From: Nitrosopumilaceae archaeon
GTDB taxonomy: Archaea > Thermoproteota > Nitrososphaeria > Nitrososphaerales > Nitrosopumilaceae
NCBI GenBank assembly: GCA_965209085.1
Contig: OZ242376.1
Span: 608,001-672,000, forward strand
Length of the DNA: 64,000 nucleotides
Reading direction: 5' to 3'
Every line of letters starts with the position of its first letter. Within the stretch, counting starts at the first letter, position 1. The position numbers were made by a program, and so were the translations under genes. Positions 56,774 through 64,000 of the stretch are shown here, piece by piece. Under the pieces are notes generated by a model. That model was given only the letters and a program-made list of their open reading frames with translations. It was not told the DNA's origin and searched no databases.

Positions 56774-57151
56774 TTACCTAGTTCCAAAATAATCAAAACG
56801 CGTAAAAAATGGAAATACTTTACTTCGTAATCTGCCGATAAATTTTCCAAAATCCAGTGAAAATGCGATAACCGTGGTCTCTAATGTATTTTTTATAGAA
56901 GAATCATGATCAATTGTTTTTATCATCCATCGATCAATAACACATTCGGACAAAACCACAAATCCTGCCCAAGATGCCGTAAAACTCCAAGAAACTAGTT
57001 TGGCGAATGAGAGTCCGATAAAAATTATTGAGTCCATCAACAAAGTTTCTGTTATATTTGGATAGTTGTAGAAACTGTTTTTTGTGAATATTTGGCAAGA
57101 TGGAATCCCCCAACGACCATCTGAAAAACCGTTTGTAGCTTCTAGATCCAT
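56774..57151 (-). pseudogene. Possible decayed membrane-protein gene fragment
   Basis: Hydrophobic stretch IIFIGLSFAKLVSWSFTASWAGFVVL; stops upstream in frame; only a faint MscS-like look. Confidence 0.25.
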
Positions 57152-57238
57152 TTCTCCACCAGTTGTGATGCACTATTGCATTATGCACTACTTTGAATCG
57201 TTTTTTTGTCCTTTTAGTATGTGTAAACAAAAATCAAT

Positions 57239-58532
57239 AGGCCTTATGCATAATCAATCACTGAGACATACGGTTCCGACTATGACGCTGTCATGATCAA
57301 AGTACACATGGCCTAAAACCTTCAAGCAGACAACAAAATAAATCAAAATATCATATGCATGACAAAAAGCAGAATATTATGCGTGACTGTATGCACAAAG
57401 ATGTGCTACTTGATTTGAGCGCAAACTTTTTCCAACGGTTCGATATACTTGCGATCCTTTAACATGATGTGCAGATTGGTCAGTCCTGTAACCACTTGGA
57501 TTTCTGTATAAAACGCATCCATTGTATCATCATATACGGCACTCATTCTGCGGAACCATTTGAGCCGGTTTATGGCATGCTCTACTTTTATGCGCTTACG
57601 ACTGATTCTCTTGCTGTATTCACGTTCTGTCTCTGTCAATCCCTTACCCTTTGGTTTTTTGTACGGCTGCTTTGAGATAATGCCCCGATAGTCTTTTTCC
57701 ACGGACAGATATCCCTTGTCAGTATATAGCATAATTTGGCGCTCTTTTTTTGTATCAGAGTTTTTCATGCCATTGGTCCATTTGCCAAAATTTGGCGGAT
57801 TACGCCGCAGTACCTCCATGTCATGTACTGAGCCATCTTCAGGTCCGCCAATGTCAAGTACCAACCCGTCTTTGTTTGAGGTTATCTGTACGTTGTAGAC
57901 GTGCCTCTTACGCTTTCCAGAGTATACTACCTCTTGGTTTTCCTGCGGTCTTTGAACCTGTACAAACGTGGCATCAAGATATAGCTCGCCGCCGCCTCTG
58001 CCGGGTACGAATTTTTTAAACAACTCGCTTGTACGTATTGTCCGTATTGCAGCACCAATATTCTTAGCCGTTGGAAGAATATTCATCAACAATTCATCAG
58101 AAAAGGTCAGATATCTGCTGATGGTGCTCTGATCAACGCCTGCAATGGCCGCAAGCAATTCCTGTTTAGGATTGTTGCGTTTGCGGCACAGTGTGACAAA
58201 CAAAATTTGAGATGCAGTGAGAATACAGGTGTTTCCAGGATCGTCGACATCATCTGAAAAGCGGGGGACCTTGGGCGAATATTCGATAACTTTTTCAAAC
58301 CGTTCCTGAATCCATTCAAACTCTTCACGGTTCATTCCAGTCGTCCCGTACAAATAATTGTCATCGTCAATTATGTGGTTCAAATATTCGTAGGCAGATT
58401 GTTGCTTTTCGACCTCATTATCATGTATCGTTTTTTTGTAGTGTTGAATTTCTGCTTCAAGCTTGGAGATCATCTCTGTTTGCTGGGCGATTATACGCTT
58501 GTCTGGGGCACACATGCTGTACGAATGTGATA
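57239..58532 (-). mobile_element. IS5-family (ISL2/Harbinger-like) element, 5' end interrupted
   Basis: End AGGCCTTATGCATAATCA at 57239 preceded by AAT; no matching second TIR found upstream of the transposase. Confidence 0.75.
57406..58515 (-). CDS. IS5/ISL2-group transposase (DDE_Tnp_4-like)
   Basis: GVDQSTISRY HTH, LDATFVQVQRP, YSGKRKRH, GSVHD, TDKGY, RIKVEHAINRLK. Confidence 0.9.
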   Translation of the reverse strand: MCAPDKRIIAQQTEMISKLEAEIQHYKKTIHDNEVEKQQSAYEYLNHIIDDDNYLYGTTGMNREEFEWIQERFEKVIEYSPKVPRFSDDVDDPGNTCILTASQILFVTLCRKRNNPKQELLAAIAGVDQSTISRYLTFSDELLMNILPTAKNIGAAIRTIRTSELFKKFVPGRGGGELYLDATFVQVQRPQENQEVVYSGKRKRHVYNVQITSNKDGLVLDIGGPEDGSVHDMEVLRRNPPNFGKWTNGMKNSDTKKERQIMLYTDKGYLSVEKDYRGIISKQPYKKPKGKGLTETEREYSKRISRKRIKVEHAINRLKWFRRMSAVYDDTMDAFYTEIQVVTGLTNLHIMLKDRKYIEPLEKVCAQIK

Positions 58533-58542
58533 CTAACCATAT

Positions 58543-59662
58543 GTGCCCAAGAAATCAAGGAATTCAGATGGTTGCTTAAATGATAAATCCGTATCAGTCA
58601 ACAAACGCAAGCCCAAAAACAAAGCTCAAAATGCAAACAAAAACACTAGGGTGTTTAAGAGCAAGTCCATGTTTGTTGGAATTGACTCCCATAAAGAATT
58701 TCTCCAGATAGCAGCAATTGACGGCAAAGGCAAACTGATCTTAAACACGCGTGTTGAAAACAGACACGCGGACATTAGAAAGTTTTTCCAAATAAGCATA
58801 CCCGAGGGTTCAAAGATGGTAATGGAGTCATCATCTGTCTGGTACGGACTGTTCCGATACATGACCGACAGACTGGATCTTGATGTGATTCTCTCAAACC
58901 CATATCAGACAAAGGCCATTGCCGCATCCACTAAAAAAACAGACAAAGTTGATGCGCAAATTTTGGCAAATTTGCTGCGAGGAGGATATATCAACGAGTG
59001 CTATGTTCCAGGTAAAAAGATTGTAGAGCAAAGACAACTGGTCCGATACAGGCACAAACTTGTACAGGCGAGAACAAATATGAAAAATTCCATACATGGA
59101 ATACTGCTCCAAAAAGGAATTAAAATTCCAGGACGTACGTTTTCGTACAAATACATTGCAAGCCTTTAAGCCATAAACGACTATCGAATAGACGGTTTTC
59201 TTGCATCCATTGGCCTTTATGACAATCAGATACAAAAAGCCAATGTACTGATCTACAAGTGCACGTACAAGCCGGTATGCCGATATACTCAAAACTGTCC
59301 CAGGAATTGCAGATTTTACGGCATTAACGATTGCATCTGAGATTGATAATGTTGAGAGATTCTCTGATCCTGAAAAGCTAAAATCATACGTAGGACTTGC
59401 ACCATCGGTCCGCAATTCTGCCAATCTCGTACATCATGGACACATAACAAAAAGAGGAAGCAGAATGCTCAGGTGGGTTCTAGTTGAGGCAATACGCTCG
59501 CACGTACTACATGCACCAAAAAGTGACATTTCAATATTTTACAAGCGGCTTGCAAGAAAGAGAGGAAACTCCAAGGCTGCAGTTGCAGCAGCTGGAAAAA
59601 TGCTAAAGGTGATTTACTGGTTACTAAAGGAGAATCGGGATTTTGAACAAAATTACAGTTAG
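58543..59662 (+). pseudogene. IS110 transposase/recombinase with a nonsense codon and a frameshift
   Basis: FVGIDSHK, VMESS, KTDKVDA; TAA at 59167; frameshift near 59270; then VPGIA..SEID..RF..YVGLAPSVRNS..GHITKRGSRMLRWVLVEA. Confidence 0.9.
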
Positions 59663-59867
59663 TTGCACGGCCGCGGCGCAGTATATGGAGATAGTGCTCC
59701 GAGATTCTAACTGCGGTAAGCTCTAACAAGTGGATGAAGATGGTTGTGGGGATAATGCCCCGAATGGATATATGTCTCTCATTCTTTAATTGGAAAAATA
59801 GCCCCTAGTGGATACTGTACAAAAATATGGAAAAACGCAAGGAATACTTAAAAAAGAGGCACATGGA
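59663..59867 (+). ncRNA. Candidate IS110 bridge RNA/seekRNA
   Basis: About 200-nt non-coding end with two hairpin-capped internal loops; segments ATGGTT and ATGGATA match the element's own ends; homologous copy at 62226. Boundaries are uncertain. Confidence 0.55.
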
Positions 59868-60989
59868 TATACTGCGGATCAAAAGTAACTGCAATCTACA
59901 GCTTTTCTCATAACAAAATCCATTATTGATACTTTGAATCGTACAGTTCTAAAATATTCTGAAATTGTATATTTCATATTCTCAAATGTTTCATAATATT
60001 CAGTGACGGCCAACGCACGTTTGGCCTGATACCAACATTCTTCAACGGCACTCAGAAACGGTGAACTTGTAGGGAAAAACAAAAGCTTTACCTCATCTTT
60101 ATTCTCAGATATATATTTTTTAATAATTTTGGATTTTCTGTGTTGTGCAGTTCTATCCGTAATTATGCAAATTTTTCCAAATTTTTGATGAGCCATTTTT
60201 AAAAACTTGAGAAATGATTTTGCATCAAACAAATCATAGTTTGCAAACATCTGCCTGCTATCCGATAAGAGTACTCCAAAGACAACAATTTTTTTGTGAG
60301 AACCTGTGGATTTTACGTAACAATTTTTGCTTATTTCAATCCAGAGTTTCTTGCCGGATAATGAATCGTATTTTATTATACATTCATCCTGAACGCCTAC
60401 TGCAAATCCACGCTCTTCAAGTAGGCATATTTGACGCCTAGTGTTTTGCGACCAGTTGTAGCAGACTGATGCCGGCGCTGCATTGACATGAATTCTTTTT
60501 GGAGCCTTGCTGACAAATGAGAATTTGTGGAGTCTTTTTCTGATGTTTGATATGTGATATTTTACTCCGGTTTTGCGTTTAATGTTGTGCATTACCTGTT
60601 TTGGATCAACTGAACCGTTCTCTCGTCTTGTCATGTCAATAATTTTTTTAAATCGTATATTTGATAATAATAAAGGCCTGCCCGATTTGGGCAGGGTTTT
60701 AAGACCGTCTAATCCAAGCTCGTCATATCGTTGCATGCATTCTTTGCCCCAGTTGTAGCTTTTCATCAGTAATTCCGAAGCTTTAGCTATATGGGGATGT
60801 TTTGGTATTTGACCATGCTTACAAGATATATTTTTGATATCTCTTTTCTGTCTTTGACATGCCTGCTTGCATTATACAGTTCCTGATGTTCTTTGTTCAT
60901 GATTGATTCATACCCGAGGTGATCCAAATATCTTGCGGTTACATTGTGCCTAGAGTCATAAATTGCAGTTACTTTTGCGTGTCAGTATA
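59868..60989 (-). mobile_element. IS630-family element nested in the IS110 right end
   Basis: 28-bp TIRs TATACTG-N5-CAAAAGTAACTGCAAT at 59868 and (reverse) 60989, including TA duplications. Confidence 0.92.
59879..60900 (-). pseudogene. IS630 transposase with a 2-bp insertion near the 5' end
   Basis: ATG 60900 gives MNKEHQELY...IPI*; an extra TA near 60790 breaks the frame; the downstream ORF has SGRP, QDE, TDR, PFLSAVEECW. Confidence 0.8.
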
Positions 60990-61061
60990 CTTGGGGTTTT
61001 TATTCCAAAAAATACCGCATATGTTGAAAATCCCATTTGAAATGCAATGTTGTTCAAATCC

Positions 61062-61600
61062 CACATGGCAAGAATCTTTTTGTTCTCTACGTTTACAGCT
61101 AGCGCTATTCGGATAAACCTGATTCAAATTTTCCACTTTATGCGCCTTTGCTCCATGCTTTCGCCTGCATTTATTTCGCTGCAATCAAATGCAACCTCTA
61201 TATTCTCCGTCTCTTTTGTAATGGAGTTTGAAAACGTAAAGACACCATCGTGTTCTTTGTAACCTATATCAATTACAGATATCCTCCTCAATATCTGGAC
61301 AAACCCGATCCCAAAGGAATCGTTGGTCTATTTTGATAACAGACCGTCCATCTGTCTGTATCCGATGCCAAACACGGATCTGATAAACACCATTTGAAGT
61401 ATCAGTGATTCAGGACAGATGAATGGTTTGCCCGTTTTGTTTTTATTCATGCTGCAAAGCTCGGATTTCATTTGTGTGTAATCTGAGCTTACCCCGATTT
61501 TTCCCCTGGCTTACATATATTGCATCCGTGCAGTACGTCAACACAAGGGATGTGATCTGATCTTTTTGTGTTTCGGTCGGCATCAGTCATTTTAGGCAGG
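61062..61600 (-). pseudogene. Decayed, truncated IS5-family transposase (different group)
   Basis: Hand translation: ELCSMNKNKTGKPFICPESLI..GIGYRQMDG..VAFDCS..KW..FIRIALAVNVENKKILA with several stops. Confidence 0.7.
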
Positions 61601-61661
61601 GTTATGAAACAAAGTCATGCGATCTACAACTATAAATACATAAATTCTAATTCATCTGTTA

Positions 61662-62225
61662 TTGTCCATCAATATCAAATATCCAAAAATCATCGAATTG
61701 AGCAACGGTAAAAAAATACTGCTAACTGATGATGATTGGGAAAAACGTACATTAGTAATAGAAACAGACAAACTTGAATCTGAAGTTCGAACGATACTGA
61801 AAAAAGAAGGCTATGATGATACAAATTTGTTAGAATTTAAAAAATTGGAGCAGTTGGGTAATGGACTTATCAAACAAATCGATGAATGTCAAATACACAT
61901 TAGACTCTATTCACATAAGAATCACATACAGTTGGATGCAGAAGCCGAACTATCTAATAAGTATGTGGAACATTTATCATACGGATGGATTTCAGCATTT
62001 CAAGAAAGCTGGAATATTATAAATAAAAATTTTGGTAATGTTTGGATATATCATAAAGGTAACAAAAGATATGTTAAAAAAGTAATTTCAGAAACTATTC
62101 TGACATTAAATGATTCACAATCAAAAACAGATTATAAATTATTGATGGCATCTGGAATATTTGGAGCTATTATTGGGGCAGGTTTATTTTGGGCTCTTAA
62201 TCGTTATGCAAAAAAAGATACATGA
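61662..62225 (+). CDS. Hypothetical protein with C-terminal TM helix
   Basis: 187-aa ORF, TTG start about 25 nt after TATAAATA; ends LLMASGIFGAIIGAGLFWALNRYAKK. Confidence 0.65.
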   Translation: MSINIKYPKIIELSNGKKILLTDDDWEKRTLVIETDKLESEVRTILKKEGYDDTNLLEFKKLEQLGNGLIKQIDECQIHIRLYSHKNHIQLDAEAELSNKYVEHLSYGWISAFQESWNIINKNFGNVWIYHKGNKRYVKKVISETILTLNDSQSKTDYKLLMASGIFGAIIGAGLFWALNRYAKKDT

Positions 62226-62396
62226 CTCCGTTGCATAACTGCGGTAAGCTTTAACATGTGGATGAAGATGGTTGTGGGATTAAATCCCGAATGGATAGAT
62301 GTCTTTTTACTTTTTGACTGGAAACAGACACATAGCGAAAGCCATACCGCATGACACAAAAAAGCAAGAAACCTTTAAAAAGTATTCACATGGGTG
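62226..62396 (+). mobile_element. Orphan diverged copy of the IS110 non-coding right end
   Basis: AACTGCGGTAAGCT.TAACA.GTGGATGAAGATGGTTGTGGG...CCCGAATGGATA.ATGTC shared with 59709-59776; ends CACATGGG. Confidence 0.85.
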
Positions 62397-62403
62397 AACT
62401 CTA

Positions 62404-62737
62404 ATAAACTGACTCAAATGGTTCCGTAAAATGAGTGCCATATATGATGACATAATGGATGTGTTTTATACAGAAATTTAAGTGGTTACAGGATTGATCA
62501 ATCTGCACATCATGTAAAGGATCGCAAGTATGCCGAACCGTTGGAAAAAGTTTGTCCTCAAATCAAGTAGCACATCTTTGTGTATACAGTCACGCATAAT
62601 ATTCTGCTTTTTGTCATGCATGTGACATTTTAATTTATTTTGTTGTCTGTTTGAGATCATTATTCACTATGTGTTTTGATCATGGCAATGCCATAGTCAG
62701 AATCGTATGTCAATGTAATTGATTATGCATAAACTTT
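62404..62737 (+). mobile_element. Decayed 3' fragment of the ISL2-type element (inverted copy of ~57239-57572)
   Basis: CTCAAATGGTTCCG..GAACCGTTGGAAAAAGTTTG..CAAATCAAGTAGCACATCTTTG..GATTATGCATAA. Confidence 0.88.
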
Positions 62738-62831
62738 ATTTATTTCTGATTCAAATTCATTGCTGCATACATTGTATCTTTTATGGCTTATTTATTTTTA
62801 GCATTTTTCGTTCATTCCACTTAATAAAAAA

Positions 62832-63800
62832 TTAGTCAATTTTTAATATTTTTTGATTTGTATTTGTATATGGGAATTTAAAATCTATTTCACGTGGGAA
62901 CACAAGTTTAGATTTATAATTTTTATTATTTTCTAAAAAATTCTCAATTTTAGATTTGTTTTGGTAAATTATTGATTGAAGAATTCCAAAGTATGGTGTA
63001 AGATGTTTTTTATCACCTCGCCCACAATCTTTTTCATTTTTTAATATTAATTCAACATCTTCAGGAGTCATATTAATATTTTTTAATAATTGATCAATAT
63101 TTTGAATAAGCATGATTCTAATTTTTTTATTTGGTAATAGACTATCATCCCAATATTTTAAAATTTTTTCAATTTTTTTATATCTTATCAAGGTATTGTT
63201 AGTTTTTTTTACAAGTATAGATTTTTTATTATTATCTATTTGATTAATTGACAATTCGATATTCTCCAACATAGCTTTTATTTGATATGCTATACGCATT
63301 TCCCCCCAATCATTTTTTTTAGATTTGTAAATACGATCATGTGTCGCTAAAATCCACGCATGTTGTAAAAATGTTTTTATCTGTATCTCGAACAGTATGT
63401 CATGCATAGGACTATATGGTAATTTCGGATCATTTTTTAATTTACCATATAATCTAAGATCATCAAACTCAAATGAATCAGGTTCTTTATGTGTAAAATC
63501 TACACTCTTAGGTTTGACACGACATTCATTAAAGAAATTGGAGATTGATCTTCTTGCAGTATTAATTTCATCATTATTTTTAACAACAATTGTGCATGCA
63601 AAAAAATCTTCTAATTGGTCCACAAGGAATCTCCCAGTTTCTATCTTTAATGCGTATGATTCAATAGTTTTTAATCTGCTAAAATAATGCCAGTGTGGTT
63701 TTTTTCGTTCTTTGATTAGAGTATCAACTCTTTTTTTAACAAGTTTATTTATTTTTAGTTGTGGATCATAATGCACTTTAATAGAATTAAGTATTATCAT
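62832..63800 (-). CDS. RelA/SpoT-domain nucleotidyltransferase (small alarmone synthetase-like)
   Basis: SRLKTIES..KI, LEDFFACTIV, FEIQIKTFLQHAW..THDRIYK. Confidence 0.8.
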   Translation of the reverse strand: MIILNSIKVHYDPQLKINKLVKKRVDTLIKERKKPHWHYFSRLKTIESYALKIETGRFLVDQLEDFFACTIVVKNNDEINTARRSISNFFNECRVKPKSVDFTHKEPDSFEFDDLRLYGKLKNDPKLPYSPMHDILFEIQIKTFLQHAWILATHDRIYKSKKNDWGEMRIAYQIKAMLENIELSINQIDNNKKSILVKKTNNTLIRYKKIEKILKYWDDSLLPNKKIRIMLIQNIDQLLKNINMTPEDVELILKNEKDCGRGDKKHLTPYFGILQSIIYQNKSKIENFLENNKNYKSKLVFPREIDFKFPYTNTNQKILKID

Positions 63801-64000
63801 TTTTTAAATAATCCTTTAATGCATTATAACGGCCAATTCTTAAACCATGATCTGTAGTGGCGCCTATAGAATGTTTGAAATATAACCAAATAGGATCCAT
63901 TTGATCCACATTTTGACTCACATCATCTTTGTTGGATTTATAGTAGTTAACTTTAGAAATAAAGTGCAAATATTTCCTAACAAATTCATTTGGATTTGGC
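63787..64000 (-). CDS. 3' end of an unknown gene overlapping the RelA/SpoT-like gene (5'-partial)
   Basis: Frame open to the window edge (PNPNEFVRKYLHF...ATTDHGLRIGRYNALKDYL); 14-bp overlap. Confidence 0.65.
   Translation of the reverse strand, partial: PNPNEFVRKYLHFISKVNYYKSNKDDVSQNVDQMDPIWLYFKHSIGATTDHGLRIGRYNALKDYLKNDNT

Follow-up and report, generated by a model that had tools for sequence, protein, structure and literature searches.

A probable defective IS1111-type element with a predicted bridge RNA in a Nitrosopumilaceae archaeon

The window analyzed here is a stretch of 64,000 nucleotides (nt) from a Nitrosopumilaceae archaeon (assembly GCA_965209085.1, contig OZ242376.1, positions 608,001 to 672,000 of the forward strand), in which a broken transposase gene is followed by a noncoding region read previously, from the letters alone, as an archaeal IS110 bridge RNA (the original prediction). 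Unless genome coordinates are specified, positions are those of the window. The source genome is a single contig of 1.69 Mb, and the thaumarchaeal host that had been supposed is borne out by its ribosomal RNAs, which match archaeal Rfam models best, and by an encoded archaeal AmoA (394.7 bits), which is matched in none of 14 control genomes. We conclude that positions 58536-59867 are very probably a defective archaeal element of the IS1111 type, the 3' end of which would encode, on the strand of the transposase, a bridge RNA (seekRNA) of about 120 nt together with a small third hairpin. With its core (58534-59869), the element sits between two other insertion sequences (ISs), a DDE_Tnp_4 element on the left and an IS630-like DDE_3 element on the right. 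Its parts are as follows.

58527-58533 (+), left target half (LT), GTGATAC, in the end region of the multicopy DDE_Tnp_4 IS; it agrees with the 3' strand of loop 1 at 5 of 7 positions
58534-58535 (+), core dinucleotide TA, left copy; the sole dinucleotide common to the left and right junctions in all four copies
58536-59867 (+), body of the IS1111-type element (the "W" lineage), 1332 bp, core not counted; its resemblance to the three other copies begins and ends here
58537-58547 (+), left subterminal inverted repeat CCATATGTGCC, partner of the repeat at 59858-59866
58669-59662 (+), broken transposase gene, with a TAA and a frameshift; its stop codon TAG is at 59660-59662
59858-59866 (+), right subterminal inverted repeat GGCACATGG, partner of CCATATGTGCC
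59868-59869 (+), core TA, right copy, which doubles as the TA target duplication of the IS630-like element
59870-59876 (+), right target half (RT), TACTGCG, the first seven bases of the IS630-like left inverted repeat

Four near-identical W copies are present in the genome, along with fragments that include a left end at genome position 672892. Besides the window copy, these are found at genome positions 856387-857775 (-), 1172063-1173451 (-), and 730168-731145 plus 732256-732668, the last being split by another insertion. Similarity between the copies starts at TA-ACCATATGTGCC and, on the right, runs through ...GGCACATGGA-TA into the same neighbor in all four, namely, an IS630-like left inverted repeat, TACTGCGGATCAAAAGTAACTGCAAT; on the left, the four flanks are mutually unrelated. 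Contigs assembled from three public DNA runs branch at 58534/58535 and at 59868/59870, which are the borders of the element, and contain no joints, so that neither a circle junction nor an empty site was seen in them; these runs may include the source sample of the genome and are not independent of it. The W junctions read flank-TA-ACCAT at the left end and ATGGA-TA-TACTGCGG at the right end. Since TA occurs at both, the circle junction should be ...ATGGA-TA-ACCAT.... A CT core, with the junction ATGGATA-CT-AACCAT, had been proposed instead; this proposal does not hold, because the shared dinucleotide is TA and the C belongs to the flank of the window copy only, the other copies having TC, CC, and CG before the TA. 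The subterminal repeats of W are 9 bp long, with a 2-bp insertion on the left side, and are inset by 1 nt from the ends. Of the two noncoding ends, the right one (59663-59867, 205 nt) is longer than the left one (58536-58668, 133 nt).

The transposase is indeed broken, as predicted. An in-frame TAA at 59167-59169, between the DEDD and C-terminal domains, is found in all four W copies at a position where the sister lineage described below (lineage A) has an arginine. The window copy alone carries a further 2-bp (AG) deletion after 59257; the AG is present in the contigs of the three public DNA runs. The open reading frame (ORF) at 58543-59169 matches DEDD_Tnp_IS110 (PF01548) with 88.8 bits, and the rest of the gene lies in another frame. 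When the gene of another W copy, L003, was read through with X, it matched PF01548 with 92.4 bits and PF02371 (Transposase_20) with 79.3 bits; the corresponding scores for an intact A copy are 98.1 and 77.3 bits, and an intact A paralogue scores 219 bits on the NCBIfam model NF033542, "IS110 family RNA-guided transposase" (cut-off 140). The motifs MFVGID, VMESSS, KTDKxDA, and GLAPSVRNSA were seen in the transposase alignment. Weak but specific matches to the solved transposases of IS621 and ISCro4 (E values of 6e-6 and 2e-8) cover only the C-terminal domain well. The protein is present in 61 of 301 genomes, and a search of genome contigs returned one locus, encoding a relative with 54% identity. 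By nearly all the criteria that can be applied to sequence, the element is a member of the IS110 family, of the IS1111 type.

The structure of the putative RNA was derived from an alignment of 18 sequences of the 3' noncoding region, comprising W, two A copies, and relatives drawn from 15 further genomes of the class. The RNAalifold consensus consists of five helices: a basal helix, which often includes the stop codon of the transposase, and then two units of outer helix plus hairpin, each enclosing an internal loop of 10 + 10 nt. The predicted parts in the window copy are the following.

59658-59777 (+), predicted core of the bridge RNA or seekRNA, matched by covariance model R1 (98.2 bits, E value 1.5e-20); basal helix P1, 59658-59662 with 59723-59727, followed by the target and donor modules
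59671-59716 (+), target-binding module; helix P2, CCGCG (59671-59675) with TGCGG (59712-59716), and hairpin GGAG-AUAGUG-CUCC (59687-59700)
59676-59686 and 59702-59711 (+), strands of the target module; 5' strand GCGCAGTATA(U) and 3' strand AGAUUCUAAC
59732-59777 (+), donor-binding module; outer helix GGAUG (59732-59736) with UGUCU (59773-59777), and hairpin GGGG-AUAAUG-CCCC (59748-59761)
59737-59746 and 59763-59772 (+), strands of the donor module; 5' strand AAGAUGGUUG and 3' strand AAUGGAUAUA
59806-59817 (+), third small hairpin, UAGU-GGAU-ACUG, which is UAGC-GAAA-GCUA in relatives; the weakest helix, with 78% of alignment cells paired

The consensus contains 25 pairs, with compensatory changes in 14. 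When the third hairpin is included (29 pairs), 93.2% of 512 cells pair, compared with 32 to 47% when the partners are slid by 1 to 3 columns, and 16 pairs show changes on both sides. Shuffled alignments reached the observed values in 0 of 500 cases on four of five measures and in 35 of 500 on the fifth. Three G-U pairs (columns 25:63, 90:132, and 104:121) are kept in 16 to 18 of the 18 sequences, which fits an RNA of the transposase strand and not a DNA cruciform. Covariance model R1, of 123 positions, finds 20 places in the source genome and has matches in 24 of 151 genomes of the class, belonging to 14 of 48 genera; a covariance model built from relatives had been named beforehand as a check, and its outcome is that the structure is conserved. 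No Rfam 15 family was matched at 59650-59870 (a permissive search of 57000-64000 gave 4 matches, all with E values of at least 3.6).

All the letters quoted for the two loops in the original prediction are present, CGCAGT-ATAT-GGAG-ATAGTG-CTCC-GAGATTCTA-ACTGCG at 59677-59715 and ATGGTT-GT-GGGG-ATAATG-CCCC-GA-ATGGATA at 59740-59770. The helix assigned to loop 1, CGCAGT/ACTGCG, has to be replaced, since it is CCGCG/TGCGG that is kept across the 18 relatives, and CGCAGT lies in the variable loop strand; both the minimum free energy and the centroid structures given by RNAfold for the window copy also pick CCGCG/TGCGG. The CGCAGT/ACTGCG alternative is peculiar to W and is possible only because the target, TACTGCGG, resembles the constant scaffold AACUGCGG.

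The loops can be read against the flanks and ends of the window copy. The stretch 59677-59686 (CGCAGTATAT) has the reverse complement ATATACTGCG, which is identical at all 10 positions to 59867-59876, made up of A + TA + TACTGCG. Originally no match for the right flank had been found; this is the best match of all, with a probability of arising by chance of about 4^-9 per register (nine informative bases). On the left, a match of GAGATTCT to the flank at 6 of 8 positions had been reported, and it is present; read as AGATTCTAAC (59702-59711) against the left junction TGATACTAAC (58528-58537), it becomes 8 of 10. By hand calculation, a left match of at least 5 of 7 would occur by chance in about 1% of cases per copy. 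The 5' strand of the target loop is complementary to the top strand of TA+TACTGCG and the 3' strand resembles the top strand of the left junction, the two overlapping at the TA. For the donor loop, the 3' strand at 59763-59772 (AATGGATATA) agrees with the right junction (59862-59871) at 9 of 10 positions, and the reverse complement of the 5' strand (59737-59746) agrees with the left junction (58534-58543) at 7 of 10. The relation of loop 2 to the element ends AACCAT (58535-58540) and ATGGATA (59863-59869) is as the original prediction described it, with one strand reading as the right end and the other as the reverse-complemented left end.

Covariation between guides, flanks, and ends was examined across relatives of the element at 17 loci. 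Loci L042, L044, L045, L048, L049, L051, and L053 to L060 were omitted because one or both ends could not be placed, the locus ran off its contig, or the gene lacked a two-loop RNA after it; L037 was also omitted, having the same flank on both sides. At this locus (G110:C20), one and the same 28-nt sequence precedes the left end and follows the right end, which suggests tandem copies or a duplicated target. For the right flank compared with the reverse complement of the RNA region, the longest run was 6.0 versus 4.5, and none of 20,000 permutations reached the observed value. For the left flank in a fixed register, the six bases before the TA matched the 3' strand of the loop at 4.12 versus 1.42 positions, which was reached in none of 100,000 permutations. 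Scanning of the left flank over the whole RNA region gave no significant result, the observed values being reached in 14,130 of 20,000 permutations for matches and in 2,249 of 20,000 for runs. As the ends vary (ATGGATA, ATAGATA, ATGGGTA, and AAGGTAA), so do both donor strands, with 1 and 0 of 50,000 permutations reaching the observed agreement. A further 23 model matches served as an out-of-sample set. In 14 of these the right end was placed automatically from the donor loop alone, and the remaining 9 were dropped for lack of a unique automatic candidate. The run of matches between flank and target loop at the 14 loci was 5.43 versus 3.31 (0 of 100,000 permutations), and by eye four of them have 7 to 9 consecutive matching flank bases, or 9 to 10 with the core. 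The direction of the covariation of guides with flanks and of guides with ends is unambiguous in these comparisons. A "handshake"-like match between the two final bases of the donor 3' strand and the two that open the target is found in W, L032, and L038 and not in most loci.

These relations bear on whether the region could be an ordinary 3' untranslated region, a terminator, or a hairpin signal acting as DNA, its loops resembling the flanks by chance or through capture of flanking sequence. The unremarkable stability of the single-sequence fold and the missing Rfam family would agree with such an origin, to which we nonetheless give almost no credence. The loop-flank and loop-end relations hold in quite different relatives (0 to 1 of 20,000 to 100,000 permutations); one strand matches directly and the other as the reverse complement, with an overlap at the TA, an arrangement that capture of a flank would not give; and the conserved G-U pairs speak for an RNA. 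The original identification of an archaeal IS110-family element whose RNA has target and donor loops appears sound in view of the protein domains (PF01548 with PF02371, and NF033542), the conserved fold, and the covariation of loops with flanks and ends. The kind of RNA was named correctly as the bridge RNA of IS110 elements; its likening to the IS621 type was not, the RNA lying downstream of the gene and the repeats being subterminal, as in the IS1111 type. Covariation of guide and target, another check suggested at the outset, is found across the family and is not borne out for the left guide of W, which fits poorly in three of the four full copies.

The constant right flank of W prompts the question of how the element came to lie beside the same neighbor four times. 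Unoccupied IS630-like copies read flank-TA-TACTGCGG. W occupies 4 of 7 IS630-like left ends and none of 5 right ends (TACTGACACG). The W parts of the four loci are 97.8 to 99.5% alike; the attached IS630 parts are 93.3 to 98.1% alike and do not group apart from two unoccupied full copies. This pattern of occupancy and divergence is better accounted for by repeated homing of W than by a composite that was duplicated. Put most simply, the IS630-like element lands at arbitrary TAs, which would leave W only TA and the 7-nt repeat tip to rely on. According to the competing account, W and the IS630-like element move as one composite by means of the IS630-like transposase, and the right flank is constant through cotransposition. 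The same right neighbor in all four W copies and the TA on both sides of the composite, which is the duplication expected of an IS630-type move, would agree with it. We give this account very little credence, as the left end of W has nothing like the IS630-like inverted repeat (TACTG..CAAAAGTAACTGCAAT) that the transposase would need, the attached IS630 parts are more diverged than the W parts and form no separate group, and the loop strand matches the repeat tip at 10 of 10 positions, the same loop position matching the right flank in unrelated lineages. The converse order of events, with IS630-like elements inserting beside preexisting W copies, was rejected because of the right flanks of the IS630-like elements, which have no common sequence, and because of the 10 of 10 match of the loop to the tip. 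As a separate observation, the left flank of one unoccupied IS630-like copy (genome positions 1361701-1361741) contains, at a distance of 3 nt from the TA, GAGATTTCTAAC, which is similar to the 3' strand of loop 1 of W, GAGATTCTAAC, with one extra T and may reflect chance or be the trace of an earlier event.

The same genome contains a sister lineage, A, with about 60% protein identity to W and about 15 copies of the RNA region. Examples are listed below in genome coordinates, followed by a fragment in the window.

156313-157647 (-), 476687-478028 (+), 693557-694891 (-), and 963197-964538 (+), A-lineage copies
156522-157514 (-) and 693766-694758 (-), two intact A transposase genes, each of 331 amino acids
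62226-62395 (+), window coordinates, truncated A right-end fragment; it begins inside the loop-1 hairpin, has the donor hairpin GGGAU/AUCCC, and shows a decayed right end that reads CACATGGGTG and then AACTCTAAT

The fragment accounts for a covariance-model match at genome positions 670186-670306 (window 62186-62306; 64.4 bits). A and W have in common the very ends (TA-ACCATATGTG ... CACATGGA-TA), the 3' noncoding scaffold, and both strands of the donor loop. Between the lineages the subterminal repeats change on both sides together, with GTGAA/TTCAC in A (CCATATGTGAA and TTCACATGG) and GTGCC/GGCAC in W, and both strands of loop 1 differ as well. The insertion site of A is the end of a palindromic miniature inverted-repeat transposable element of about 85 bp, ...TTATGCA-TA-[A/C]RSSTCTA, of which 84 uninterrupted sites are present in the genome. 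Within A, copies with the loop GAC have G in the right flank in 6 of 10 cases and C in 4 of 10, and those with the loop GAG have C in 4 of 4; this link between loop and flank is suggestive only (one-sided Fisher test, about 0.07, computed by hand). Two A transposase genes that are otherwise full length (genome positions 476820-477812 and 963330-964322) share an in-frame TGA at codon 38. In addition, a W-like right-end fragment with 85% identity (genome positions 329539-329668, +), in which the donor hairpin is decayed (GGGA...TCAC) and the donor strands are altered, is possibly a third, extinct lineage.

Given these data, we propose the following mechanism. In the target module, the 5' strand would pair with the top strand of TA and the right half, and the 3' strand with the left half and TA on the bottom strand; the donor module would pair in the same way with the joined element ends, ...CACATGGA-TA-ACCATATGTG.... 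W would be excised as a circle with the predicted junction ...GGCACATGGA-TA-ACCATATGTGCC..., that is, ...CACATGGA-TA-ACCATATG..., and the junction predicted for A is ...TTCACATGGA-TA-ACCATATGTGAA.... If IS621 and ISEc11 are a guide, the DEDD/serine recombinase would act as a tetramer whose dimers hold the RNA; it would pair the RNA with circle and target, and strands would be exchanged at the TA. W would be programmed for the tip of the IS630-like left inverted repeat, TA-TACTGCG; as any TA will do for the IS630-like element, the target would be constant in its right half only, and the W copies would fit their left flanks poorly. W itself would now be nonautonomous. Because all W copies carry the same TAA and sit at four different sites, we infer that they spread after the TAA arose with the help of the intact A recombinase, which W could use because the ends and donor loop of A are identical to its own.

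Alternatively, the region may be a decayed relic in which RNA gene and transposase are both dead and the loops record a past specificity, a possibility that we regard as real without thinking it likely. The nonsense codon in all four copies, the additional frameshift in the window copy, and a genome full of fragments of both lineages are in keeping with decay. Against this, the W RNA regions score 97.6 to 98.2 bits on the model, near the 102 to 109 bits of copies with intact genes; the four copies, at four sites and all with the TAA, must have been copied after the mutation arose; and the genome also has intact recombinase genes, in elements whose ends and donor loop are identical. The original prediction had the system testable after repair of the W transposase; with two intact paralogous transposases alongside, such a repair is not needed.

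A motif in the right end may extend the proposal of a W lineage mobilized by the A recombinase.

59848-59855 (+), TTAAAAAA, a TATA-box-like motif directed outward; the right core copy ends 23 nt beyond it

Its consensus, TTTA.AAA, is found at a fixed distance, also in GC-richer relatives, and a TATA-like hexamer is present in 23 of 31 loci. As a hypothesis only, this box may serve as an archaeal promoter directed outward, with transcription crossing the circle junction. In bacterial IS110 elements, a split -35/-10 promoter is formed at the junction. A and W could then be viewed together as a natural reprogramming experiment, in which W would be a guide-swapped, nonautonomous parasite of the A recombinase that homes by essentially only the right half-site (core + 7 nt), and in which the family would carry a complete outward promoter of the TATA type in the right end, so that circularization would switch on transposase and RNA. 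This joint reading is tentative and, in our estimation, rather doubtful; within it, and at the same tentative level, the right-end promoter would be the archaeal counterpart of the split junction promoter.

Several observations weigh against the proposal of a guided element and its homing by a half-site. In the other three full copies, the left guide of W agrees at 6, 5, and 4 of 10 positions, and three of those positions are the constant TAA; if pairing of both halves were required, as in IS621, W should integrate poorly. The left match of the window copy is good, and it may be partly a product of rearrangement or chance, since the flanks of this copy are chimeric. Judged by eye, the W and A types are about 2 nt apart in the register at which the right flank matches the loop. 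The single-sequence fold is not more stable than those of shuffled sequences (z of 0.77; 153 of 200 shuffles fold as well). The loci used in the covariation tests are relatives, so the permutation counts overstate independence and are not probabilities, and for 4 of the 14 out-of-sample loci the genome had already supplied a training locus. Finally, the mobilization of W in trans by the A recombinase is something that we only infer.

The element resembles the IS1111 group as described for ISEc11, ISPa11, ISKpn4, and ISPst6 (PMC11187229), with the RNA downstream of the transposase, subterminal repeats (about 7 to 17 bp in IS1111), a transposase of 331 amino acids (stated range, 330 to 350), and the strand complementary to the top strand placed 5'. 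In the account given there, the top-strand-complementary segment of IS1111 seekRNAs lies 5' of the bottom-strand one and the two overlap in the target, and seekRNAs are not strictly confined to closely related transposases (PMC11187229). A longer noncoding region downstream of the transposase is among the IS1111 criteria described (PMC11187229, PMC11208160), as is the C-terminal motif GL-P----S(t)G, with TA an occasional variant (PMC11187229). The pattern fits the W and A motif GLAPSVRNSA, but with SA instead of SG or TG, and SA is not mentioned in the sections of PMC11187229 that describe the motif. Unlike the IS1111 seekRNAs described, the present system has an archaeal host, no similarity to a curated RNA family (Rfam), a TA core, and, in W, only one well-matched target half.

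With IS621 and ISCro4 (PMC11208160; PDB 8wt6 and 9t56), the element shares two internal RNA loops and a DEDD plus C-terminal serine domain architecture, whereas the protein similarity is remote (the E values above, in the C-terminal domain). In IS621 the left guide pairs with the bottom strand and the right guide with the top strand, the core being in both (PMC11208160). IS621 differs in having the RNA upstream, in the left end, with the guide order reversed (PMC11187229), a CT core, and a target guide of 9 bases on the left and 4 on the right, compared with the long right guide of W (9 to 10 bases) (PMC11208160). Homing to the inverted repeat of another transposable element is known from an earlier IS1111-type element; W inserts at the TA directly outside the IS630-like tip, so one target half is not conserved. 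ISPpu9, an IS110-family element with the downstream small RNA gene Ssr9, is similar in its insertion into a repeated element and its extra RNA-only copies elsewhere, and unlike W in its bacterial host and repetitive extragenic palindromic (REP) target (PMC12288879). Bridge RNAs were predicted in 93% of the IS1111 elements of ISfinder (PMC11208160), 662 archaeal IS110 recombinases have been counted (10.1101/2024.06.21.599552), and IS110-adjacent intergenic sequences from 6,968 archaeal species have been clustered (10.64898/2026.10.21.760802). Among the titles and abstract openings surveyed, none describes a bridge RNA of Thaumarchaeota or Nitrososphaeria or a TATA-box promoter in such elements. 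These elements may well be listed in supplementary tables, for example in Table 5 of PMC11208160, in Table 3 of 10.1101/2024.06.21.599552, or among the clusters tabulated for 10.64898/2026.10.21.760802.

The surroundings of the window copy are rich in other mobile elements and their remains.

57406-58515 (-), transposase gene of the DDE_Tnp_4/HTH_Tnp_4 IS on the left; many genome copies, with ends 100% identical at 7 other places
59870-60987 (-), IS630-like element, the landing site of W; DDE_3 transposase at 59879-60766, minus strand
62430-62500 (+), C-terminal fragment of another DDE_Tnp_4/HTH_Tnp_4 IS copy, adjoining the A-lineage fragment
62832-63800 (-), ORF of 322 amino acids with a RelA_SpoT domain (PF04607, 37.1 bits), a small alarmone-synthetase-like protein in an island rich in IS debris

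The flanks of the pair formed by W and the IS630-like element (58527-58535 and 60988-61010) are mismatched and do not make up one original site. In its other copies the DDE_Tnp_4 IS of the left flank continues with GATCATAG... after the TA; the far IS630-like flank reads CTTGGGGTTT, which is unrelated. The mismatch means that some rearrangement has happened here.

The picture of how IS110-family elements work is unchanged by this locus. What it would do is place a well-defined family of bridge RNAs or seekRNAs in ammonia-oxidizing archaea (Nitrososphaeria), with guides, TA core, ends, and targets that can be read from the sequence. The features of note are the TA core, the apparent half-site homing to the repeat tip of an IS, a defective lineage with swapped guides next to an intact one, and what may be a promoter in the right end. 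The genome is a convenient set, with intact recombinases, one scaffold bearing either of two natural target loops, and numerous target sites, both occupied and empty. It could serve for work on an archaeal bridge recombinase, on the requirement for the left target half, and on how such elements are transcribed in archaea.

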